From a virus (lineage: Duplodnaviria; Caudoviricetes), in IMG/VR virus record IMGVR_UViG_3300031760_000050, positions 3,744 to 67,743 of that record: a DNA stretch of 64,000 nucleotides, one strand, 5' to 3'. Each line of letters opens with the position of its first letter. The stretch's first letter is position 1. The notes beneath the pieces are model-generated. The model did not search any database, was not told the DNA's origin, and was given only the letters and a program-made list of their open reading frames with translations. Below, in pieces: positions 384 to 62,935 of the stretch. A program made the translations under genes and the position numbers.

Positions 384-402
384 ATTATACCTCAGTAAAC
401 TT

Positions 403-414
403 TACTGAGGTGTT
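403..414 (-). promoter_or_regulatory. Late-type promoter AACA-N6-TA
   Basis: AACAcctcagTA, +1 20 nt before ATG 383. Confidence 0.65.
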
Positions 415-420
415 TTCAAC

Positions 421-457
421 AAAAATAACCGCTTCCGTTTTCTATGGAAGCGGTTAT
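421..457 (-). terminator. Intrinsic terminator
   Basis: ataaccgcttcc/ggaagcggttat stem plus U-tract on minus. Confidence 0.8.
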
Positions 458-460
458 CTG

Positions 461-679
461 TTAAATGACAGTAATCGCATCAGGATCATTCATCATTCTG
501 TCAAATTCATCAAACGTTGCGTTAAGCCCCAAATGATATTCACGCTTTCCATCAGGACGTTGAACTATTTTTGTTTGACTCTTTTCTTGAAACCGTTTAG
601 GTCCAATCGCAAATATTAACTGATTACAAAGGTCGTCACCAATAGTATCATGAAGAATTGAGTTTTGCGCTATATACAT
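461..679 (-). CDS. Hypothetical protein, 72 aa
   Basis: AGAAGGA SD, early-type promoter upstream, terminator at 421-457 downstream. Confidence 0.7.
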   Translation of the reverse strand: MYIAQNSILHDTIGDDLCNQLIFAIGPKRFQEKSQTKIVQRPDGKREYHLGLNATFDEFDRMMNDPDAITVI

Positions 680-760
680 AGTAATATCCTTCTAGTAATA
701 ATTCTTTCATTGCCATTTACTAGTATGGCGATTGGGATTAAGCTCTCATACGAGTGCTTT
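680..760 (-). promoter_or_regulatory. Structured 5' leader, copy A
   Basis: GCACUC-GUAU-GAGAGC, UUAAUCCCAAU, second hairpin, AGAAGGA. Confidence 0.6.
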
Positions 761-763
761 CAT

Positions 764-776
764 AATAATGATATAT
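764..776 (-). promoter_or_regulatory. Early-type promoter motif
   Basis: ATATATCATTATT. Confidence 0.5.
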
Positions 777-811
777 AAATTATCTGGTCGCATATGCGAC
801 CAGATATTTTT

Positions 812-1675
812 TTATGATGCAGGTACAAAAACGATATTCTTGGCAACTCCCTTAAACTCAGGGTCTTCCCAAGCACAATCTTTGATGAGTTTAATCATAT
901 AGTTGAAAGGAGAATAATCCATATCGACAATCTCGATGTAGTTGAACTTCTCCTGAGCTTGCATAACTTTAATCTTCTCAGCTTCCTTAACCCTATCGAC
1001 TGCGAGAATCTTATGATGCTTATTTTCATGGGATTTAATCTCGACAATCAAGTTAAAGTTTGGAAGATAATAGTCAGGGATGTACAGATGCGTGGTTCCT
1101 TCATACATATACTCGAATGTCTCAGGACACCGCATGATTTCTGTTGATTCCCAACCGTATACTTTGTCAAGCAATCTTAAGAAATCTGCTTCGTAGCTTC
1201 CCATGTATGGTACACTACCACCGTCTGGGAAAGCATACTGTCCTGAAATGCTACGACCTTCTTCCATCTTCTCTTGCATCTTCGGGTCGTTTAGTAAATG
1301 CTCTTTGCCGTATTTTGCGACCATACGACGTTTTGCTTCCTGAACGTACTTCATTCTACACTCTGGCGAACAGAATCGTTTATATCGTTCTGCTTCTTCG
1401 TCCCAATCAGTATGCTTAATTCTACACATAACACACAATCCATAAGACTTATGATTGCGCACATTGAAGCAATACTGAGCAGGGCTCATACCTTCAGGGA
1501 GTTCATCTCCGTGGTTTTTCAATATATGAGAATACAATGCGTTTTTACCTATGTATGGACGCCCGCACACAGGGCATTTTACAACTTTTTCTTTTTTCGC
1601 AGTTTGTGCGATATCTCTTGCAGATTCCATAGCAACTTCGCCGAAGAAATCTGCTGTTTCAAAAACGATACTCAT
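812..1675 (-). CDS. C2H2 zinc finger + Zn ribbon + TnsA-N-like PD-(D/E)XK endonuclease
   Basis: CPVC...HILKNH; CVMC...FCSPEC; SYEADF...YIPDYYLPNFNLIVEIKS. Confidence 0.7.
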   Translation of the reverse strand: MSIVFETADFFGEVAMESARDIAQTAKKEKVVKCPVCGRPYIGKNALYSHILKNHGDELPEGMSPAQYCFNVRNHKSYGLCVMCRIKHTDWDEEAERYKRFCSPECRMKYVQEAKRRMVAKYGKEHLLNDPKMQEKMEEGRSISGQYAFPDGGSVPYMGSYEADFLRLLDKVYGWESTEIMRCPETFEYMYEGTTHLYIPDYYLPNFNLIVEIKSHENKHHKILAVDRVKEAEKIKVMQAQEKFNYIEIVDMDYSPFNYMIKLIKDCAWEDPEFKGVAKNIVFVPAS

Positions 1676-1716
1676 GTTATTATAATTCCTCCAAAATCAC
1701 TATAAAAATCGAGATT

Positions 1717-1728
1717 AACAAGAAACTA
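1717..1728 (+). promoter_or_regulatory. Late-type promoter
   Basis: AACAagaaacTA before gp25-like operon. Confidence 0.7.
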
Positions 1729-1736
1729 ACAGCGAT

Positions 1737-1748
1737 TACCGCCTTGTT
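1737..1748 (-). promoter_or_regulatory. Late-type promoter
   Basis: AACAaggcggTA before the 812-1675 gene. Confidence 0.6.
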
Positions 1749-1773
1749 TTTACGGTAATCAAGGAGGTACATC

Positions 1774-2226
1774 GTGTCTGAAACTTTGATTTGCGATTAC
1801 TCATTTGAGTTTGGTAAATACAAAGATATGAACGAAATGCTCGACAATAATAACTTCCGATATAAGCTAAATGCTTTGATGAATCTGATGCAGACAAGAC
1901 CGGGACAGGTTTGTGATAATCCGAAGATGGGTATTGATATGGATAAATTACAATTCTCTGAAGGAATGGAAATTGGTAACATGAGGAGTTACATCCAGCA
2001 GCAGATAATGAATCAAGCAAATACTTATATCGAGCCAGGATTTGTCGAGGAAATCGAAATAACCTCTGTACCTATCACAAATGGTGAAGCGGGTGCTGGA
2101 GCTATGGAAGTACAGTTTAGAATGGCTCTCAAAGGTGAAGTTGGCGTTGTAATAACGTCAATAAAATCGGAGAGAAAGCTCGTTTTCAAAACTGTAGAGT
2201 TTGATAAACAACCTTTCAGGTTATAA
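1774..2226 (+). CDS. Baseplate wedge protein, T4 gp25-like
   Basis: LMNLMQTRPGQVCDNPKMGIDM matches gp25 pattern; GTG start with AGGAGG SD. Confidence 0.7.
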   Translation: MSETLICDYSFEFGKYKDMNEMLDNNNFRYKLNALMNLMQTRPGQVCDNPKMGIDMDKLQFSEGMEIGNMRSYIQQQIMNQANTYIEPGFVEEIEITSVPITNGEAGAGAMEVQFRMALKGEVGVVITSIKSERKLVFKTVEFDKQPFRL

Positions 2227-2245
2227 TTTATAAAGGAGCCAGTTT

Positions 2246-2908
2246 ATGGATAAGGATTATGATGCAAGACGTAATATGCAGCGTTACGTCGACACCACAA
2301 GCGAGGAAATCGCTAGGACGCAAGAACAGCCGCTGAGAGAACGTTTCAAAACGTTCAAATCTCCTGTGAAGAACGAGCAGGAACGTGAGCAGATGTATGC
2401 TGATGTATCACATGCAGTGTCGCAGTTTGCTCAGAGTAATATGCCTTCTTCGGTAGCGAATGAAGCGGCTACTGCTACGCCGAAGGAACGCAAAGCTACA
2501 CTCGACAAACAGAGAGGAATTATCAAACGTATGCGTGCAGAACATGGTCTGGAAAATAAATCAGAACGTAGACCTGCACAAGGTGTTGTAAACGGTGAAG
2601 CTGGAAAAGGATTTTATCCCCTTCCAACAGAAGCTGAAGTCACCGGTCATCGTGAAGAAGCACGTGTTGTTCAGCATAATAATAGAAAACCACTTCCAAT
2701 GGAACAACGGCTTATCGACGCCGGAAAGCAAGAGTTTGCTACTCTCGGTAGCGAAGTTTCAAAACCTGATTACGGGGAATACAATTCGATAACGGAGTCT
2801 GAAGCTAAGCAAGGCAAGTTCGGTTTTGAGAAATCTGCCCAGCAGTCAAAGAATCCGCTTGGGTTGTACGACCCAGATTTCGAAGAAGAAAACGAATCTA
2901 ATCTATAA
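2246..2908 (+). CDS. Hypothetical protein, 220 aa
   Basis: AAGGAG SD, co-oriented in late operon. Confidence 0.75.
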   Translation: MDKDYDARRNMQRYVDTTSEEIARTQEQPLRERFKTFKSPVKNEQEREQMYADVSHAVSQFAQSNMPSSVANEAATATPKERKATLDKQRGIIKRMRAEHGLENKSERRPAQGVVNGEAGKGFYPLPTEAEVTGHREEARVVQHNNRKPLPMEQRLIDAGKQEFATLGSEVSKPDYGEYNSITESEAKQGKFGFEKSAQQSKNPLGLYDPDFEEENESNL

Positions 2909-2920
2909 GGAGTTTAAGTT

Positions 2921-4969
2921 ATGGAAGAACGCAAAATTCCGCCTATGGTCAATATGGACCCTAGTCACCCGTCAGCAGCGCCTTCAATTACAATCGAAGA
3001 GCGTACTAACGCTGAACTGGAAGCACTTGGTGCTACAAAGCGCAATGATGCTGCACCCGCAATCCCGCAGGTTCAGAAGTCTAAAAACGATGGGGTTCCT
3101 GGGAAGTTTACACTTCCACAGTTTGCAAATGAACCTATCCATCGTGGCGAGCAGGAAACTATGGTTCCTCCGCCTACACCGGTAAATCCGAAGTTTGCCG
3201 AAAACACAATCCCTGCGGAGAAGAAAGAAATGAATCTCGAAGCACCTACATCTATCGCTGCTCCTGTTATACAAGAACAGAAAGCGCCGGAAGTTATGGG
3301 AGTAGACATTGCTCCAGTTCCAAATATTACTGAAGCCGTCGAAACTCAGCGCAAGCTTGACCATCCTGAGTTGCAGGAAAATCCTGACGATAATCTCAAG
3401 CCTGCGAAGAAAGTCATCGTTCCTGAAGGACATAACGAACCGCTTCCTGAGCCGCCTGAAACTTCTGAAATGGAACGTTCTGCAGAAACAGTCGCTGTTG
3501 AAATGCCGAAACCGGAAGTTGCCACAACAAAAGAACCGCTTACTCAGCCTGAACCGCAGGATGCTGCAGAAGCTCTCGAAGATGCAAAGAAAGCTGTGCT
3601 TGCTGAGCGCAAGAACGTCGTGATTCCGAACGAATACGAGGATGCTGACCCTGAAGCATCTCGCGAAGCGCCGCACGTGCAGGAAGTTGAGGATACAACT
3701 CACGATAGCATTACTCCGAAAGAGTCCGACGCTGTCGATTCTGATGGTGCTCCTATTCAGGGCGACGTTCCTTCAGACCTTCCTGAAGAGAAGATTGTAA
3801 CTGGTCTTACCGACGACGAAATGCGGGACAAGTTCATCAAAGAGAATGATGAGATGGAGAAAAATTATCCTATCGCCACAACACCCCGCAAGTACACAAC
3901 TGCGAAAGAAATTCATGAGTTTGTCGACGAGACAACTACTCATTTCCGCATTATCGAAGGCAATCCGTCGATGAAACCAAAGCGCAAGATTGACCCGAAA
4001 GCACAGAACGTTACCATCATCAAGAATGATGAAGCTCACAGCTCCGATTTCTCACTCCGCTTTACACGTGCGCAGATGAACGTTCTCAGCGGCGAACGTA
4101 AAGTCATGGTCGTTGCAACACAGTCCGGTTACTCGGTTATGTGTTCAGCCATGAACAGCCGCGAAATCCGTGCATTCGGTCGTGACCAGCGTTCTCAGGA
4201 CGATATGAACAGAACGTACAACGCAAACATGGCAATTGTGTCTGCAGTGTTCGCAAAGCTTTCGGACTTCTCTTGTGGTCCGATGACGTTCAACCAATTC
4301 ATCGAGAATACGGCATATCCTGATTTGCAGACACTTATCTTCGGTATTTATCAGGCAACCTATCCGATTGCTAACAACTTCAACCTCATGTGTACTTACT
4401 GCAACCGCAGCTTCAGCGTACCGATTGGAAATGCATCACTTGCATGTGTTCCTGCTGGTGAAGTTGAGCAGCAGTATATCAAAGACGTATTGTATGGTGC
4501 GGCTGACCCTCGTGAGCTTATCAAAAAGTCAAAGAGGTACACCGGCTTCGAATACTTCTATGAAAATAACACGAAATGTTTGCGTATTCGCACACCGTCC
4601 ATCTTGGAGTTCTACAAACGCGCCTATCAGGGCAAGCGCGAGGACATCATAGACGAGTATCAGAACGATATGTACTACGCAGGTTACTGTCGTAGTTACG
4701 GTATTGCAGATATCGAGGAGTTCAACCGCTCTGGAAATCTGACGTACATCCACTCTGAGAAAATTGAAGACATTGACCGCGCAATCGCCGAGATGAATCC
4801 GTATGAGAAAGAAGCATTTGAGCGCACGATTCTGAATTACATCAACAAGTATTCAGTTTCGTACCAGATTCCTGCTGTACGTTGCCCGCACTGTAAGAAG
4901 ATTATGCTTCAGCGTGAAATTAACATGAAAACGCTTTTTTTCGAAGCCAAGGCCCAAAGGGGGTTATAA
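2921..4969 (+). CDS. Baseplate hub/tail assembly chaperone (T4 gp26/gp51-like) with long P/E-rich N-terminus
   Basis: LIFGIYQATYP...MCTYCNRSF and VRCPHCKK Zn motifs in C-terminal half. Confidence 0.6.
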   Translation: MEERKIPPMVNMDPSHPSAAPSITIEERTNAELEALGATKRNDAAPAIPQVQKSKNDGVPGKFTLPQFANEPIHRGEQETMVPPPTPVNPKFAENTIPAEKKEMNLEAPTSIAAPVIQEQKAPEVMGVDIAPVPNITEAVETQRKLDHPELQENPDDNLKPAKKVIVPEGHNEPLPEPPETSEMERSAETVAVEMPKPEVATTKEPLTQPEPQDAAEALEDAKKAVLAERKNVVIPNEYEDADPEASREAPHVQEVEDTTHDSITPKESDAVDSDGAPIQGDVPSDLPEEKIVTGLTDDEMRDKFIKENDEMEKNYPIATTPRKYTTAKEIHEFVDETTTHFRIIEGNPSMKPKRKIDPKAQNVTIIKNDEAHSSDFSLRFTRAQMNVLSGERKVMVVATQSGYSVMCSAMNSREIRAFGRDQRSQDDMNRTYNANMAIVSAVFAKLSDFSCGPMTFNQFIENTAYPDLQTLIFGIYQATYPIANNFNLMCTYCNRSFSVPIGNASLACVPAGEVEQQYIKDVLYGAADPRELIKKSKRYTGFEYFYENNTKCLRIRTPSILEFYKRAYQGKREDIIDEYQNDMYYAGYCRSYGIADIEEFNRSGNLTYIHSEKIEDIDRAIAEMNPYEKEAFERTILNYINKYSVSYQIPAVRCPHCKKIMLQREINMKTLFFEAKAQRGL

Positions 4970-5025
4970 GAGACAAATCTGGAAAGCTCGTCAGCACAGA
5001 TGTAGATATCGAGGAATCGGAATAC

Positions 5026-5196
5026 ATGTTGCAGCTGCTTGAGCTTTTTGGAAACAGCATATCTCTTACCGAGCTAGAAGAAATGGATTTGCCCTTACTG
5101 TCTTCTCGTATTGAGGCTCGAATTAGGCAAATTGGCAAACGCGAAGAAGCCCAAGCCAAAGCACGAGAAGCAGCTAAACGTGCTTCCAAAAGGTAA
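5026..5196 (+). CDS. Small tail-assembly-chaperone-like ORF, 56 aa; possibly the frameshifted extension of 2921-4969
   Basis: MLQLLELFGNSISLTELEEMDLPLLSSRIEARIRQ...; frame open from 4924, i.e. -1 relative to upstream gene. Confidence 0.65.
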   Translation: MLQLLELFGNSISLTELEEMDLPLLSSRIEARIRQIGKREEAQAKAREAAKRASKR

Positions 5197-5220
5197 TACT
5201 ACACTTAAGGAGTCCTACAA

Positions 5221-5604
5221 ATGGATAAAATGAAATTTCTTCTGGACTTGTCGAACCTTGGCGATGACCAGAAAGCAAATGATGAAAACTTCAAGGCGAT
5301 GATGCAGCATGATAGCTTCATCAACGCAGTGTACGACCATGTAAACGGTATCAATGATTCTGAAACTGGTGGTGCTGCTACAGTACAGCCAGTCGATTTC
5401 AGAAATCTTGAAACACCACCAGAGGTTATCTACTTCAAACCTGCTCAGAATCTGGACATTCCTGAGGAAAAGCAGGCTAAAAAGTTCGGCGGTTGTGTAC
5501 CATCGACTTATAGCTTCGACGATACTGTTGGAGACGAGGAGATTCACTTCGGGTACGACAAAAAAGCACACATGTATACGTACACACATACACATCGTGC
5601 TTAG
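5221..5604 (+). CDS. Hypothetical protein, 127 aa
   Basis: AAGGAG SD; directly upstream of chaperonin. Confidence 0.7.
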   Translation: MDKMKFLLDLSNLGDDQKANDENFKAMMQHDSFINAVYDHVNGINDSETGGAATVQPVDFRNLETPPEVIYFKPAQNLDIPEEKQAKKFGGCVPSTYSFDDTVGDEEIHFGYDKKAHMYTYTHTHRA

Positions 5605-5630
5605 CACGAAATTATATTGGAGGAACTACT

Positions 5631-7517
5631 ATGGCATTTCTCTTTAACAGAGGAGAATATAGCAACGTTATCGGAACGAATAAACTGAGACGTGAGGCTG
5701 CAAAAGCTCTCAAGTTTGAGTCTCAGGCGTTTGCAAAAACGCTCGGTCCGTACGGTGAAAACACCATCATTGAGTCTCAGACACTCAATCACAAAATCAC
5801 AAAAGACGGTTTTGAAGTCTATAAAAACGTAGTTATCTACAATAAGATTGGTCGAGTTATTGCCCGTCTTATTCAGAAGATTTCTGGTACGTTGAACGAA
5901 AACGTCGGCGACGGAACTACGTCATCTGTGGTTGTGGCAAAAGAAATGTACCAGCTGCGCAAAATCATCAAAAAATACAAAATTACGCCGAAGCTCTTCA
6001 CTCTTATTTTGGAAGAAGTAAGTGCTTGGCTGATTTCACGCATGAAGGTTAATGCATTCGATGTAACAACGCTGTCTGAGGATATAAAGGCTCTCGCAGA
6101 CCGCACTGACCTCGACAAACTCCGCGATACTCGTTTTCATGAAGTTGTCAAGAACTTGGCCGCTATCTCGCTTAACAACGACTATGAGAAAGGTCAGCTC
6201 ATTGCCGACATTTTCTCACAGCTTGAAGAGCCTGGAAATGGTTACATCAACGTCGACCGCTCGAATACTGAGCTTACACATTATGACAAAGACCGTGGTT
6301 TTGAAATCTTCCGTGGCGCAATTGACCCTGAACTTACTCCAGGAGGCACCATTGAATGGCGTAAGCCGAAGATTCTTCTTGTTAAGGGTCAGCTGGCAAC
6401 GAACGATATCGCCTGCGTCGAGAAGGTTGTAAACTTCGTTATCGGAACGCTAGGTCAGCCACTTGTCATTATTGCTGGCGGATTCAGTCAGGCTCTTACG
6501 CAGACAATCCTTCAGTCGGCGATGGTGTATCGCGAACAGAAAAAGACAGCGTTTCCGCTGCTTGCAATCGAAGTTGATAATACTTCAGATGCAGGTTTCG
6601 AGAACTTCAAAGACGTTGAGGCGAACGTGTGTGCTACAATCATTGACACACAATATGGTAAACCGTTCCCGAACGAAAAAGAACCGGAAATGTACATCAA
6701 GTACCTTGGTGAAGCTGAGCTTGTACGCTGTAAAGGCGTTTACTGGACTCGTATTCTCGGCGGCAAACGTTCAGCCACTCGTGTTGAAGCACGTCTCGCT
6801 GCTATTGACCAAGAAATCGCTCGCTTGAAGTCTGAGCCGGAAGTTGACCATTATCATGCTATCTTCAAGCTCAACAAACGTCGTGCTTGTTTGCTCAATG
6901 ACATGATTACGCTCAACATTGGCGGCAAAACACCTGAAGAAAAAGAAACCGATGCGTTCCTTTTCGACGACGCTGTGCGTGGATGCAAGTCGGCAATCAA
7001 CAACGGTATCTGTCGTGGTGGAAACCTTGAGGTTGCACGTATGTGCTATGAAATCCTCAATAATCTCAACCCGATGGTTGACGTTCTGAAAGACGAGGAA
7101 CTTCCTGTACTGGTTGACTTGTGTATGAAGAAAATCCAGTCGTTCGGTATCAGTGAGAATAAGATGAAAGCAATCGTTATTGATATGCTTCGTGGTCTCA
7201 TGGATGCATACACGAGAGCGTTCGCAATTATCGTGAACAATAAGTTTCACGACCGCAGAAAATCAATCAAAATTGCAAGAAAGTGTGTTGCTGAAAACCA
7301 GGTGTACAATCTCGTCGACGGTACATACGAATCTTACGATAGCAACCCGGATTCCTTCAGCTTCAACGGCGGATTTAAGATTGGTAACAAGGTTATCAAC
7401 TCGGTTGACACAGACATCAATATCTTGAAGACATCAGTGTCTATCCTCAACTTGGTGATTACCAGCAACCAATTCATCCGCTTCCCGAAGCGTGAGGAAA
7501 TGCTTAAGAACATGTAA
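5631..7517 (+). CDS. groEL: Phage GroEL-like chaperonin
   Basis: TLGPYGENTII, ITKDG, VGDGTTS, DDAV motifs; no GGM tail. Confidence 0.95.
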   Translation: MAFLFNRGEYSNVIGTNKLRREAAKALKFESQAFAKTLGPYGENTIIESQTLNHKITKDGFEVYKNVVIYNKIGRVIARLIQKISGTLNENVGDGTTSSVVVAKEMYQLRKIIKKYKITPKLFTLILEEVSAWLISRMKVNAFDVTTLSEDIKALADRTDLDKLRDTRFHEVVKNLAAISLNNDYEKGQLIADIFSQLEEPGNGYINVDRSNTELTHYDKDRGFEIFRGAIDPELTPGGTIEWRKPKILLVKGQLATNDIACVEKVVNFVIGTLGQPLVIIAGGFSQALTQTILQSAMVYREQKKTAFPLLAIEVDNTSDAGFENFKDVEANVCATIIDTQYGKPFPNEKEPEMYIKYLGEAELVRCKGVYWTRILGGKRSATRVEARLAAIDQEIARLKSEPEVDHYHAIFKLNKRRACLLNDMITLNIGGKTPEEKETDAFLFDDAVRGCKSAINNGICRGGNLEVARMCYEILNNLNPMVDVLKDEELPVLVDLCMKKIQSFGISENKMKAIVIDMLRGLMDAYTRAFAIIVNNKFHDRRKSIKIARKCVAENQVYNLVDGTYESYDSNPDSFSFNGGFKIGNKVINSVDTDINILKTSVSILNLVITSNQFIRFPKREEMLKNM

Positions 7518-7552
7518 AACGTCCTACTGTTACTTTCGTGGATTTTCCGCAA

Positions 7553-7595
7553 AAAATAAGACCTGGCGGGTTCCCGCCAGGCACTTTTCTTTTTT
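7553..7595. terminator. Bidirectional intrinsic terminator between convergent genes
   Basis: cctggcggg/cccgccagg stem, A-tract left and T-tract right. Confidence 0.85.
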
Positions 7596-7610
7596 GGAAA
7601 TCCTTTTAGA

Positions 7611-7970
7611 TTAAGCTACTCTCTTATAAGCCTTGATTGTAGCCAATCTTATAACGCGCTCGACGCGCATTGCAAAATCGAAGAATATTTTTGATTCATA
7701 CGCTTTTCCTTTGAACTTCCCGCCATGCCCGCCATGACAAAGAACATTGAAGTTCTCGTTGACAGGATTGAATGTGTTCACCGTAAGGCTTAACGCTCCA
7801 ATTGCATTTGTCGGAACGTTTCTGAAGAGAACTGTTACGACGGGAAACTGCCCGTCAGCTCTCTTAACACTCAAAGCGAAACGAGCATCGTCAAAGACAT
7901 ACTCTCCAATCTTTTCCTCAATGAGGTCACTGAGGGTTTCCAAATAGTAGTTACGAATATTCCCACCCAT
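7611..7970 (-). CDS. Hypothetical protein, 119 aa
   Basis: AAGGAG SD, early-type promoter. Confidence 0.7.
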   Translation of the reverse strand: MGGNIRNYYLETLSDLIEEKIGEYVFDDARFALSVKRADGQFPVVTVLFRNVPTNAIGALSLTVNTFNPVNENFNVLCHGGHGGKFKGKAYESKIFFDFAMRVERVIRLATIKAYKRVA

Positions 7971-8020
7971 TCGTATACTCCTTAAAAAGAAATTTCGTAG
8001 ATATCCCCAATCTACACCAT

Positions 8021-8032
8021 AATCATGTATAT
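8021..8032 (-). promoter_or_regulatory. Early-type promoter motif
   Basis: ATATACATGATT. Confidence 0.6.
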
Positions 8033-8114
8033 TTGGATATTTTCCATCTACGATTATGTGAATGTATTACAGTAAATAAAAAATAACTGCCCGCATTGTG
8101 CGGGCAGTATTGTG

Positions 8115-8768
8115 TTACCTGTAGAGTCTCATCTTCTCGTTGATTGAAATCAAACGGTTATTTATTGCGATGAGTTCGTTGTACTTTTCTTTGTAAGGAA
8201 CGTATCCGTCTTTTGTAGACTTACGCCACATGATGTGGTTTACATCCTTCTCCAAAGCCAAGTTCCAGTAGAACTCACCGAGAGTCATTGAAATACGCTT
8301 ACACTCAGCATTTGTACTCGGTACTTCAATCGGGTACATAGACAAAGTTATCCTTGCAGGAAATTCGTCATCTGCAGCATAATGTGCAAGTTCAAACTTC
8401 CATCCGACAGGAAGCTTCGGAATACCGAAGTTTGGTGACTTGAACATGATGTATGGTGTTGATTCGCAGATAATATGTCCACCGTTTCTGTACACATGCC
8501 CATGACAACTTGCAGCTGTAGGATAACCAAGCAGATTGAGAGCTGCGACCGCTCTTGCAATGTATGGGTCGACATATACAAATTTCTCATCATCGAGAAG
8601 CTTTATATTCGCTTTACGAGCGAAGATTTCATCAATGTACTTGCCGATTCTGAGTCTATCATAGAAGTTCCTAACTGAATCAAATACAAGTACGGCTGAG
8701 ACAGGATTTCCATTATTATATGACTTAGCTGCCTGTCTAGCAGCTTCACAATCGTAAATGTCTTTCAT
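8115..8768 (-). CDS. Hypothetical protein with Tyw3-like D..I...V..LN..G..T..SC.GH motif
   Basis: VDPYIARAVAALNLLGYPTAASCHGH. Confidence 0.55.
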   Translation of the reverse strand: MKDIYDCEAARQAAKSYNNGNPVSAVLVFDSVRNFYDRLRIGKYIDEIFARKANIKLLDDEKFVYVDPYIARAVAALNLLGYPTAASCHGHVYRNGGHIICESTPYIMFKSPNFGIPKLPVGWKFELAHYAADDEFPARITLSMYPIEVPSTNAECKRISMTLGEFYWNLALEKDVNHIMWRKSTKDGYVPYKEKYNELIAINNRLISINEKMRLYR

Positions 8769-8846
8769 GACTTTACTCCTTTTCGATAAAATAAACCTGT
8801 CTGCAGCAATCCAGCTGCAGACAGGTTCGGGTGGGTTTTTGTTGGC

Positions 8847-9023
8847 TTAGTTGATTGTGCAGTTTACAGCTGCGTATTTGTTGTCAAATACAGCCATGAA
8901 TCTGGTAGCATGGATAAAGGTGCAACCGTTCTTACCGACCTCGACGTCGTCAGCGTGAAATGTTGCGGAATGCGTGTAAACGCCCTGTTTTGCGAGTTCT
9001 TTGTATTCGTCAAACTTCGTCAT
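8847..9023 (-). CDS. Hypothetical protein, 58 aa
   Basis: AGAAGGAG SD before ATG at 9023; terminator at about 8790-8830. Confidence 0.7.
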   Translation of the reverse strand: MTKFDEYKELAKQGVYTHSATFHADDVEVGKNGCTFIHATRFMAVFDNKYAAVNCTIN

Positions 9024-9105
9024 AGTAAGACTCCTTCTCACTGTTTATCCCTTGAGTCGTGAGCCTCTCAAGGTAATTGGATTAGCTTCTCATACGAGTA
9101 GCCAA
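9024..9105 (-). promoter_or_regulatory. Structured 5' leader, copy B
   Basis: GCUACUC-GUAU-GAGAAGC, UAAUCCAAU, second hairpin, AGAAGGA. Confidence 0.6.
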
Positions 9106-9108
9106 TAA

Positions 9109-9120
9109 AATAATGTATAT
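9109..9120 (-). promoter_or_regulatory. Early-type promoter motif
   Basis: ATATACATTATT. Confidence 0.62.
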
Positions 9121-9171
9121 GCGACGATACTAGAATATACGAGACGCTCCCGGTTTCCCGGGAGCATAGAA

Positions 9172-9924
9172 TTACAACTTTAATTCCGCACAATAACGCT
9201 TGAGTTCAGGATGCTGTTTTACATACTTACGGCAGTCTTTCTCGTAATCAATCCATTTGCCTTCAAACATCCTGCGCATGAAAGGATACTTTGTAAAACG
9301 ATTTGGTGATACAAAGTTGAAGTTTCCGATGAAACTTGCAATACTCGGTACACAGTTCTTCAAAACGAATGAAACGTATGTAGAGCATACCAAATGCTGA
9401 TGTGAGAAATCTAGAGGAGAAACTGATGCCAAAACATCAGCAGACTCGTGAGTTAGCTTAGATTTAATTAAGTCGAGTCCAATTTTCACATTCTGTACAA
9501 CGTCGTAAGGAATCTTCTGATTCTGTACAGAATCTTGAAGAGATATCTTAATTTTCTTGTATTCTTCATCGTTTACTTGGCAGCAGTATACTGCGTAAGT
9601 TGACTGCTTCAAATCACAGCTTGCAATAATGAGATTTCCTTTACCGTTATGAATGTACTCACGTTTCACGTTGTCTGTAGTCAACCCATAAAAACCATCA
9701 TCTAACATACACGACATCGTTGAATGCGTTGCGATAATATCATTATCATCAGTATCATTATCCAGATGCTTAATAAATGGTGCTAATATAGCACCAGCAT
9801 GAATACCTGGTTTGTATATCGTATGTACATTGCGAATGAAAATTAGCTTCTTACCTTTTGGGAGTTCAGAAGATTTATATGCTGCCATCTCATACATGAG
9901 TTCGCTTACGCTTGGTACTTTCAT
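9172..9924 (-). CDS. Permuted papain-like NlpC/P60 (YiiX/YaeF-like) enzyme
   Basis: His early (IHAGAIL), Cys late (LVCSTYVSFVL), terminal VSP; GGAGG SD. Confidence 0.65.
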   Translation of the reverse strand: MKVPSVSELMYEMAAYKSSELPKGKKLIFIRNVHTIYKPGIHAGAILAPFIKHLDNDTDDNDIIATHSTMSCMLDDGFYGLTTDNVKREYIHNGKGNLIIASCDLKQSTYAVYCCQVNDEEYKKIKISLQDSVQNQKIPYDVVQNVKIGLDLIKSKLTHESADVLASVSPLDFSHQHLVCSTYVSFVLKNCVPSIASFIGNFNFVSPNRFTKYPFMRRMFEGKWIDYEKDCRKYVKQHPELKRYCAELKL

Positions 9925-36212: not shown

Positions 36213-39200
36213 ATGGCTGTGACCGATATGCTTGATATTACTGAGTATGGAAAGTCCTCAGCGAATCTTAAGGCTAAGTTTATAGATACATTGAGAGCTA
36301 GGTTCGATAGTTCAAGAACAGATGGTGCTGAACCTAGTCCACTCAATGCCGGTATTATCGGCTTAACTCTTGATATGAACGCAAATGCTATCGAAGATGC
36401 TTACTTCGAGAGTGTAACTCGTGGTAAAGAAATCTTTGTTGCATCTGCGAAGTTTGACGACAGTATTTATACTGAAGCAGCAAGCTGTAAAATCAATGAG
36501 TTCTTTGCTAAACCGGCAGCGATTGATATCTTGATTGGTATTCCTACTTCAGATATAGTAGACCACGCTATCCCTGTATCTGGAGGCGCTTACTCCAAAA
36601 TTACACTTAGTGCAAAAACGCACTTCATCCTTGATAACTACGTGTATATGCTGGACTATCCAGTAGACATAACGTATAAGAAAACTCAAAACTCTGAGAA
36701 GTCTATCTTCTCTTGTAAGTACGTGCTTACCAATCCTAATCAATTCTCTGATGTGAACTCAACGTATATCGTTGGCGTCATTCAGGTCGTTGACGGGATG
36801 GAATACTATGTATTCAAAGTACGTGCTCATCAGGTTAAGCTTACTTCAGAGCGTCAGGTATTCCTCGGACGTGCAAACGCAACTGATATCTTCGAGTATG
36901 ACTACGAAAATCAGCTTGCAGGATTTGAAGTCTTCTGGAGACAGAATAACAAGCAGAGCTGGACGAAGCTTGAGAATATTTACAACGGTATGCTTGTGTC
37001 AAAAGACCAGAAGATTGCTTACTACCGTTTGGGCGACCAAAAAATTGAAATCTCATTTCCGAATGCGTCAAACAAGTGGCATCCCGAAATCAATAACCAA
37101 TTCCTTATCAATATCTACACTACGAATGGTAAGGATGGCAACTTTAATTACATTTCTTCAGATGTAGCGATTCTATTGCAGCAGGATTCTGGCGAAGTGT
37201 ACGAAGCAGCTTTCTCAGGAATTACTCCTGCAATTCAGCTGGCGTCTTCTACATCAAGTGGTGGCGAAGATATGCCGACGATTGATTCTATTCGTCAGCG
37301 CGTAATTAGTTTTAAGGCTTCACGTGAAGTTATCATTTCGGATAAAGACTTGCTAAGAATCATCAAGCAATACGGTTTCAATATCGTAAAGCAGCGGGAT
37401 GATATCCTCATGCGTCAATTCGTTACTTATGCTTTGCTGCAGAATAAAGCAAAAGGTTTCACACTTCCCGGACGCACCTCTGAGATTCAGGTTGGTGTAA
37501 ATGAACTCCAGAAGTTCAATGAAACTGATTCTCTTGGAGTTCCATCATCAGATGTCTTCCAGTTCTGGTTGGCAGATGACGCTGAGTCGGAGAATATCTC
37601 AAGGTTTGTGTGTAAACAACCGCAAACTATCGAGACAACTTCAACAGCAAAGACTGATGCTTACCGAATGTCTGTAGGTTCATCTCATAACGTTGAGTTT
37701 TTGGACAATAAGGGTGCTGAAACAGCAGTTATGGTTCTTGCAGACAATATGGAGTTTGAATCAAACCGTATTTATGACAACGAGACAATCTGTTTCTATG
37801 GCGAAAATGTAAATGAGTTCAAACTCGGAAACTATAAGACTACAAATACAGTCGAAATCTACCTGATGTCAAATACGAACGACGTTTTGGTGAAACTTAA
37901 TTTAGGTTACGATGATGAAGTCTTAAACCGCGTTACTATCAAAAAAGGTTTCCGCTACAGAATAAAGTGGAACCTTAATAAGTGGATTCTTGTCAACGCA
38001 GAAGATCCGCTTGCGATAGATGACTCGCAGTTCCCAGATGAAGACGGTAAGCTTCCTACAATTCAGTATCTTGAAATGCCAGCAGTTCAAAACGTTGGTA
38101 CAGAGTTCTACTTTGTAAACCACACTGAAAAGACTACGGTTACTATTGGATATCGTTATGTAAACGAATTCAATCAGAACGTTTTGAAAACCGTGCAGGT
38201 TCCTGTTCACAACGTAGTTAAGTTTATAGCAGATTACAACTCCCAGTGGACCATAGAAAAAATCGGTTTGGAAACCGATAATCTCACACCAACATTAGCC
38301 CTCAAGAATAAGAACTGGACGGTTCTCTACCAGTGGTATGAGAAATACGGCGGAATGCTTATGATGTGTCCGTTCGTTATCCGAGTTCTTAAGAATCCGT
38401 ATATGGCGGCGTTATATAACGTGTGCGTTAATACATCAGCAACCACAGTATTCAAGTACAATAACACCAACTCATACGAGAAGTTTAGTGTAAACTCGAT
38501 TTCAGTAGTTCGCAAGTCAATTCTTGACAATTACTACGAGGTTACTTGTGCATTGTCAGTATCAGACACAATTTATAACGCGTTCCTTGAAACTGACGAT
38601 ATGTCAAACTTCCCTGTACGTTTGAAGGTTGAGTTCTTGAAGTCTGACGGTTCTTCGTTCGGATACTTCTCACTCAAACAAATGTGGGTCGATGAAGAAG
38701 TTCCTAATAAAATCTACTTCAGTTCACGCCTGAGAACTCAGGATATGATTAGTGCAAAAGACTGGATTTACATTGATTCGGTCGAAGACCCTGACAATCC
38801 TGAATATACTTACATCGTCCCTACTGATGAATCAACGTTCTTGGATGGAAAGATTAAGCCGTCTGCACCGCAGCGTCTTGCATTCAGTAGTAAGTTACGT
38901 GTAAACGTCATTTACCAGCCTGATTTTGAGATTACTAACGAAGAATCTGGACATCTTCTTACAGACGACGAAAAGAATAACCTCTTTATCGTTTCTGATA
39001 TCTTCGAAACCGAAGATGAGATTAACTTTGTCCAGAACGTTTCTGACATCTTCGCTACACGTCTTAACGTTATTAAGACAGCTGGCGAATACTTCAAATA
39101 CTCAAATGACATTTATCAGAGATATGAGAAGACTGAATACAAGAAGGATGAAAATGGTATGTATGACACCGACGCTAACGGAGATTTCATTATTCTCCAT

Positions 39201-62148: not shown

Positions 62149-62874
62149 TTATACGTGGTAGATTTTAGTTGCAATCATGTCAGCGTGATGAAGCAATAGC
62201 ACTTCAGGAACTTTCTCAGTCACTTTGCTGAAGCGCATCATTTCTTCATTGGTAACACCGAAGACTCCCATGTGATAATTTACAGCAAGTTGCCACTCGT
62301 ATGAGATATTACCATCGAAGTCCATACCCATCGTATTAAGGATTTTGAAAATACGTCTTAAGCTCTCAGCACCATGACCAATCGTAAACTGTGAAGCGTT
62401 TTCTGGCTCTGCGTAATCGTACCAAGTCTTGATTTGTCCAGCTTTGTCGGTTTTTGACTTCTGAACGTAAGCTCCACACTTGCAGATGTCGTGGAAGACG
62501 CACGCAATTGGGTTGACTGAAAGTGGTTCGATACCGTAAGCGTTAGCTGTCTTGAGTGCAGCTTCGTATACTGCAAGCGAATGAGTAAGCAATCCACCTT
62601 CACACGCACCATGATACTTAGTGGATGCTGGAGCTGTCGTGAAATCAGGAAACTCTCTCAACACATTATCACAGAAGATATCGAAGATTTGGAAACCATT
62701 GGTACAATAAATATTTTTGCACTTATTGCGAATCTGGTTGATAATTTCAGTTACCAACTTCAATGAATCATCGTTCAATGACTCGGGTTTGGTTCTGAGT
62801 GATTCAAGAGTTTGAATTAACTCACTATCTCTGAGAAACTCATGGAATTGCTTCCAATCAATAATATATCTCAT
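62149..62874 (-). CDS. HD-domain hydrolase (YhaM-like)
   Basis: PASTKYHG..EGGLLTHS, FHDICK, HGAES, HMG, LHHADM. Confidence 0.88.
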   Translation of the reverse strand: MRYIIDWKQFHEFLRDSELIQTLESLRTKPESLNDDSLKLVTEIINQIRNKCKNIYCTNGFQIFDIFCDNVLREFPDFTTAPASTKYHGACEGGLLTHSLAVYEAALKTANAYGIEPLSVNPIACVFHDICKCGAYVQKSKTDKAGQIKTWYDYAEPENASQFTIGHGAESLRRIFKILNTMGMDFDGNISYEWQLAVNYHMGVFGVTNEEMMRFSKVTEKVPEVLLLHHADMIATKIYHV

Positions 62875-62935
62875 TATATCCTCCATATAAATTGATTTAG
62901 ATGTGTCTTTGAATAGACATTTTACACCTCGATAA

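Follow-up and report, generated by a model that had tools for sequence, protein, structure and literature searches.

Why should two unrelated early genes of a giant phage begin with much the same leader RNA? The question arises from IMG/VR virus record IMGVR_UViG_3300031760_000050 (Duplodnaviria; Caudoviricetes), of which positions 3,744 to 67,743 were analysed. This stretch of 64,000 nucleotides (nt), called the window here, makes up the final 64 kb of a 67.7-kb contig that in turn forms the end of a phage genome measuring 210 kb or more. The two leaders, copies A and B, are both read on the minus strand. The original prediction described a conserved structured leader at two early genes, and all the sequence features it listed are present on that strand, with a similarity above chance. 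The reading favoured here, at a probability of about 0.5, is that A and B represent a duplicated early promoter and leader module, which combines a protective stem-loop at the 5' end with boxes whose conservation implies that recognition is shared or translation tuned.

Measured from the predicted transcription start, the 5' untranslated regions (UTRs) are 79 nt long in A and 80 nt in B. Both contain, in the same order, a first hairpin (hairpin 1), a single-stranded box, a second hairpin (hairpin 2) in a constant place, and a ribosome-binding box (Table 1). Local alignment of the two leaders scores 22, compared with a mean of 9.6 (standard deviation 2.2, maximum 16) for the other 65 pairs of early leaders on the contig, and 8.4 ± 1.7 (maximum 17) for 2000 shuffles of the B leader. 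Identity blocks comprise 12/12 positions at the apex of hairpin 1 and 9/10 in the single-stranded box UAAUCC(C)AAU, which spans 9-10 nt; the ribosome-binding box AGAAGGA..UUACUAUG is likewise common to both copies.

Taken by themselves, the hairpins are genuine though of modest stability. Folded alone, hairpin 1 reaches -6.4 kcal/mol in A (z = -2.5) and -9.8 kcal/mol in B (z = -3.8). In an ungapped alignment the two copies agree at all of its 12 apical nt, ACUCGUAUGAGA, and the basal stem reads AAGC/GCUU in A and GGCU/AGCU in B, so that all four basal pairs differ and all still pair. Three of these changes affect both sides and one affects a single side (AU to GU), and all seven pairs of the hairpin are retained in both copies. 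RNAalifold applied to a MAFFT-gapped alignment recovered only the three apical pairs, since gap placement hides the basal stem, and the ungapped alignment was used instead. The earlier description of an inserted U-A pair in B is right that the stem is preserved, although four changed and still-paired basal pairs describe the difference equally well. A fixed apex on a base that is free to change as long as it pairs has the look of a recognised hairpin, as far as the two sequences can tell.

This conservation has to be weighed against a simpler history, in which the promoter and leader were copied before a second gene and the shared blocks are leftovers, with function limited to the promoter and the ribosome-binding site. 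Several facts suit such a relic: there are two copies only, in one phage species; other genes of the phage also carry the ribosome-binding context AGGAGUCUU..AUG; and the density of strain-level single-nucleotide polymorphisms in the leader (1 in 83 nt) is no different from that of the flanks (~97.4% identity). A neutral relic is nevertheless hard to reconcile with a basal stem in which every pair has changed and still pairs. It is also at odds with near-identical blocks standing beside a centre of about 35 nt that is unalignable and identical only at random level, in leaders whose total length differs by just 1 nt. The pattern as a whole, with identical blocks, a covarying basal stem, constant spacing and a second hairpin conserved only in place, points to function, and the relic explanation is judged improbable.

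Two side observations concern hairpin 1 itself. Both copies contain a three-codon open reading frame whose AUG lies in the loop, at 749-738 (minus strand; AUG AGA GCU UAA) in A and at 9093-9082 (minus strand; AUG AGA AGC UAA) in B; no Shine-Dalgarno (SD) sequence lies ahead of it, and its presence was taken as coincidence. Separately, the 12-mer ACTCGTATGAGA, expected about 0.008 times per genome, has a third exact copy at 62295-62306 (plus strand), where it lacks the stem flanks and the linker. It lies there antisense within the early gene 62149-62886, which has a weak HD-domain match, so the mRNA of that gene bears a perfect 12-nt complement of the hairpin 1 apex.

Where hairpin 1 sits in the transcript depends on the promoter. 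The contig encodes split multisubunit RNA polymerase (RNAP) subunits, a tail sheath, a GroEL-like chaperonin and a 3156-aa protein, and its RNAP beta' fragment shares ~32% identity with the counterparts in Bacillus phages AR9, PBS1 and Goe21 and in Staphylococcus jumbo phages. By its RNAP genes the phage is an AR9-like giant phage, as yet uncultivated. In AR9 the early promoter was mapped experimentally as AAATATATATTAT-6N-G(+1), and phiKZ and phiR1-37 likewise start 6 nt past their consensus (PMC5312081). The logic is nearly equal here. A motif scan places ATATACATnAT at 12 intergenic sites of the contig, with A and B among them, and the base 6 nt further on is G in nine, A in two and T in one. 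As originally proposed, both leaders lie just 3' of such a motif, and by sequence the motif of each has the make-up of an AR9-type virion-RNAP early promoter: an extended AT-rich consensus, 6 nt, a purine and an intergenic position ahead of early-type genes. By analogy with AR9, the predicted start falls at the base of hairpin 1 and not downstream of it; +1 would be 758 in A and 9103 in B, the first base of the hairpin in both. The other early starts predicted in the window are 8015, 18086, 22449, 23505, 34458, 45332, 61765, 62930 and 63973, and the twelfth early promoter of the contig lies 1096 nt before the window.

A stem-loop at the very start of the message appears to be a habit of this phage. 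Positions +1 to +32 of the 12 predicted early transcripts were folded, and a hairpin of -5 kcal/mol or lower that starts at +1 to +3 was found at 7/12 promoters, against 11% of random windows and 15% of intergenic windows (binomial P = 1e-4 to 6e-4). Copy A, at -4.6 in this fold, falls just short of the threshold. With upstream sequence included, a hairpin starts between -3 and +3 of the predicted start at nine of the 12 promoters, and two additional early promoters in other parts of the genome likewise begin with structure. Three of the remaining promoters place an SD at +1 to +5 in leaders of 10-13 nt. Stem-loops at the 5' end protect mRNA from decay that depends on that end (RppH/RNase E, or RNase J1/Y), as in the E. 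coli ompA leader, the Emory-Belasco rule and the B. subtilis aprE leader; a 5'-proximal SD, as in phage SP82, forms a second class of stabiliser. Both designs have parallels here. Given the predicted start, hairpin 1 lies in both copies within the ~0-4 nt of the 5' end that define a 5'-terminal stem-loop, with 0-2 unpaired nt as in the ompA and aprE type, and the SD at +1 to +5 in other early units resembles the SP82 type. Among the roles first suggested, a stability element seems to fit best, given that hairpin 1 starts at the predicted +1 and that the majority of this phage's other early transcripts are also predicted to open with a hairpin. Unlike a simple stabiliser, which needs neither, the present element conserves its apex and an adjacent box between two units.

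The same position on the predicted start could also be read at the DNA level. The inverted repeat from +1 to +20 might be an operator or roadblock for a shut-off protein, or a quasi-palindrome maintained by template switching that has no RNA role. The stems can extend to -1 to -3 with upstream DNA, and palindromes can gain paired changes in their arms by a mutational mechanism alone. Against this, the outer half-sites stand in different register in A and B although RNA pairing is kept, a pattern easier to square with a hairpin than with a site for a dimeric DNA-binding protein, and the conserved linker and ribosome-binding boxes are not palindromic. The hairpins of other early promoters, unrelated in sequence yet located at the same place, argue for a structural role in the RNA. 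A DNA element is thus considered very improbable.

On the favoured reading, that of a duplicated module with a protective stem-loop, the injected virion RNAP would start at the base of hairpin 1, so the transcript would begin with a stem-loop and no free 5' nucleotides, as is usual for early messages of this phage. The stem-loop would shield the early mRNA from 5'-end-dependent decay. The constant apex with its A.A mismatch, the box, the spacing and the ribosome-binding box may allow one sequence-specific factor to read both messages, and/or the loop of hairpin 2 may pair with the SD region in a pseudoknot that tunes translation initiation; the conservation suggests that one or both of these act on the two messages.

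Hairpin 2 is, as first noted, conserved in position and not in sequence, and begins at the same alignment column in A and B. Folded alone, it gives -6.4 kcal/mol in A (z = -2.1) and -10.1 kcal/mol in B (z = -1.9). In A the loop segment CUAGUAA can pair with the SD-overlapping segment UUACUAG at 700-694 (-6.7 kcal/mol; p = 0.004 by loop shuffling), and in B the segment AGGCUC can pair with GAGUCU, also overlapping the SD (-7.5 kcal/mol, p = 0.04 against loop shuffles). These segments differ in sequence between the copies and lie on different sides of the GGA core. The putative loop-SD pseudoknot is accordingly a lead rather than a finding, because the test was post hoc and the paired segment changes sides. 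The only polymorphism in the leader of the 97%-identical strain L001 falls in the hairpin 2 loop of copy B. In the B leader, an AACA-N6-AG sequence at 9045-9034 (minus strand) differs by one base from the AR9-type late promoter AACA-N6-TA/G and would yield a short, SD-first late transcript of gene B.

How widely does the leader occur? The genome is represented by one ENA metagenome contig (ERZ27256908 k141_1574202, 210 kb) together with several contigs from Logan and JGI, all 97-100% identical. The search for further copies covered the contig and stretches of the ENA contig (~60-155 kb), which together make up about 150 kb of a genome no shorter than 210 kb; it found none beyond A and B. The exact core is linked to a promoter at only these two places of the contig. 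A covariance model built from hairpin 1 and the linker of both copies likewise recovered only A and B in the window, the next match (E = 0.6) being a terminator. Matches to CTCGTATGAG at 38471 and 62296 were set aside as coding DNA that lacks stem flanks, linker and promoter. A strict leader pattern gave no match in viral contigs. A looser pattern gave at least 163 matches in metagenome and viral contigs, none in a promoter context among the matches listed, and is too loose to inform. No divergent relative emerged from the public collections scanned by pattern and protein, and no close relative of the phage from megablast against phages or from viral contigs searched with an RNAP subunit query. 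All fetched strains are ~97-100% identical and so add no covariation.

Comparison with known families narrows the possible roles. Rfam (release 15) gave no match anywhere in the window at gathering thresholds, and none to either leader at E<=5 (positions 400-9400). The idea of a cis-regulatory RNA is partly supported, in that the leader is structured, lies in a predicted transcribed region and shows function-like conservation; its riboswitch-like variant finds no support. No Rfam match assigns the leader to the small pseudoknot riboswitches (preQ1-I/II or SAM-II type), and the differing hairpin 2 loops leave no conserved riboswitch pocket. An attenuator or premature terminator was rejected too, as neither leader hairpin is followed by a U tract. 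In the jumbo phages 201phi2-1 and phiKZ, structured RNAs derived from 5' UTRs occur in transcription units and some are conserved between phages (PMC11512511). They resemble the present leaders as structured 5' UTR elements of jumbo-phage transcription units and differ in arising by premature termination in the UTR, whereas no hairpin with a U tract precedes the gene here. The early 5' UTRs of AR9 are also reported to share a motif of unexplained function (Lavysh et al. 2017, PMC5312081).

Several points weigh against the module reading. Covariation between two sequences cannot reach significance (69/500 shuffles) and rests on one comparison, and slippage or template switching in quasi-palindromes could produce paired changes without selection at the RNA level. 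The full-length fold of leader A is no better than that of its shuffles (z = -0.67). A pure stabiliser needs no identical apex, linker or spacing, which leaves the conservation unexplained by stabilisation alone. The comparison has just two copies to work with and no divergent orthologue, and the thresholds of both the 5'-hairpin enrichment test and the loop-SD test were set after inspection of the data. The predicted start relies on analogy with a relative of only ~32% protein identity. Finally, in contrast to the present phage, mapped early transcripts of AR9 mostly lack a 5' hairpin (2/39 starts have one), so such hairpins are neither a requirement nor a conserved property of the polymerase family; going by the folds, they look like an adaptation of this phage's early messages.

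Table 1. Features of the two leaders and their cassettes, with positions in the window.
Feature	Position	Strand	Description	Basis
Early promoter motif, copy A	765..776	-	One-base variant ATATATCATTAT, then 6 nt (764-759); predicted +1 = A758	
Hairpin 1, copy A	741..758	-	AGC/GCU basal stem, A.A mismatch, CUC/GAG stem, GUAU loop	Folds, pair counts
Single-stranded box, copy A	731..740	-	Conserved; UAAUCCCAAU	Alignments; mean P(unpaired) 0.76
Hairpin 2, copy A	712..729	-	GCCAU/AUGGC, loop ACUAGUAA	Fold
Ribosome-binding box, copy A	677..693	-	AGAAGGA 693-687, UUACUAUG 684-677, start codon 679-677	
Terminator before cassette A	781..806	-	Intrinsic, of the upstream DUF7487/HNH endonuclease gene; insulates cassette A	11-bp stem then T run
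Gene A	461..679	-	72-aa acidic protein, no family	
Terminator closing cassette A	421..457	-	Intrinsic; AUAACCGCUUCC...GGAAGCGGUUAU + UUUUU	Read from sequence
Early promoter motif, copy B	9110..9120	-	ATATACATTAT, then 6 nt (9109-9104); predicted +1 = G9103	
Hairpin 1, copy B	9084..9103	-	GGCU/AGCU basal stem, A.A mismatch, CUC/GAG stem, GUAU loop	Folds, pair counts
Single-stranded box, copy B	9076..9084	-	Conserved; UAAUCCAAU	Alignments, unpaired probability
Hairpin 2, copy B	9050..9073	-	CCUUGAG/CUCAAGG, loop AGGCUCACGA	Fold
Ribosome-binding box, copy B	9021..9038	-	AGAAGGA 9038-9032, UUACUAUG 9028-9021, start codon 9023-9021	
Hairpin before cassette B	9146..9165	-	Past the upstream 261-aa gene, GCUCCCGGG AAA CCGGGAGC; insulates cassette B	Sequence
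Gene B	8847..9023	-	58-aa remnant of a 307-aa MYG1-like (PF03690) gene: N-terminal 27 aa joined to C-terminal 31 aa	
Terminator closing cassette B	8793..8828	-	Strong, intrinsic	15-bp stem + U tract

Each leader heads an insulated single-gene cassette, which consists of an upstream terminator, an early promoter, the leader, an accessory gene and a strong terminator. The two downstream proteins, described originally as unrelated, indeed have no mutual similarity, but the 58-aa frame is a deletion remnant and not a natural small gene. It results from an in-frame deletion of 747 nt; the 307-aa gene is intact in strain L001 (L001:9001-9924), and the deleted form is also found in the 210-kb ENA contig and one Logan contig. 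Gene B is therefore dispensable. Gene A has no homologues beyond its own 90% cluster, that is, this phage species. The proteins encoded upstream of the two cassettes are also unrelated to each other. A homing-endonuclease flank or mobile cassette was accordingly rejected as the source of the shared leader, since an endonuclease neighbours A only. Three independent Logan contigs (L001, L006 and L008) break at or near the terminator at 781-806, between the endonuclease gene 812-1675 (minus strand) and cassette A, which suggests heterogeneity in the population and possibly a mobile endonuclease gene.

These cassettes bring up another explanation, that of a sequence-specific RNA operator in which the apex, with its A.A mismatch and GUAU loop, and the UAAUCC(C)AAU box are bound by one phage or host protein. 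Such a protein could repress translation and so co-regulate both accessory messages, like T4 RegA or coat-protein operators, or it could modify the polymerase to read through the strong cassette terminators, like lambda nut or HK022 put. The operator accounts for an identical 12-nt apex and 9-nt box at constant spacing, with a covarying basal stem and an unalignable centre, and both cassettes do end in strong terminators. Beyond cassette B, a 217-aa gene at 8115-8768 (minus strand), whose protein matches only its 97% twin, is enclosed by two strong terminators (8828-8793 and 8108-8086). A motif scan recognised neither an early nor a late promoter for it, so it may depend on read-through from cassette B, which keeps an antitermination reading alive. 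The gene 3' of cassette A, by contrast, has its own late promoter. The operator explanation also has to accommodate just two sites, and no candidate binding protein was found.

The likeness to antitermination sites is one of layout. As with lambda nutL/nutR and HK022 putL/putR, a similar RNA element stands in the leaders of two early units with unrelated genes, upstream of terminators, and is bipartite, with a hairpin and a linear box as in nut, or two hairpins. A lambda nut site combines a boxA consensus (CGCUCUUA-like) with a boxB hairpin, whose loop is a GNRA-like pentaloop, and has as its partner an arginine-rich N protein. Neither a boxA consensus nor such a pentaloop occurs here: the linear box is UAAUCC(C)AAU, the loop is GUAU, the order is hairpin then box, and the gene A product is acidic and not N-like. 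HK022 put RNA has two adjacent stem-loops, each conserved in both early operons, which act in cis on RNAP. Two stem-loops are present in both copies, but hairpin 2, unlike put stems, has no common sequence, and the polymerase is a sigma-less split phage enzyme. Taken together, an operator is possible though doubtful. Its boldest form, in which apex and box make up a bipartite RNA signal for a dedicated factor that lets the sigma-less polymerase read through terminators or shuts off both messages jointly, is unlikely.

Elsewhere in the genome, L215, L219 and L220 (ENA contig ~78-145 kb) encode thymidylate synthase, thymidylate kinase, dUTPase and DHFR. A reverse transcriptase (RVT_1) and an anaerobic ribonucleotide reductase (NrdD/G) are encoded there too, and Cpn60 is joined by Cpn10. 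The thymidylate genes speak for thymine DNA and against dU-DNA of the AR9 kind.

The leader, in sum, belongs to a known kind of element and has so far been met in a single phage species. Its impact is limited because that phage is uncultivated and because the element occurs just twice. The A/B pair still offers a natural experiment, with the same apex on a different base and next to a different hairpin 2. To our knowledge, how jumbo phages control their early gene expression beyond the promoter has hardly been studied. Should apex and box prove to be a signal for a dedicated factor, they would give jumbo-phage virion-RNAP transcripts their first described cis-acting RNA control element, set within a phage-wide habit of hairpin-first early mRNAs. 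If the prediction holds, most early messages of this phage start with a hairpin at +1, which would offer a host-independent transcription programme a simple way to protect its first mRNAs while host RNA is being degraded.

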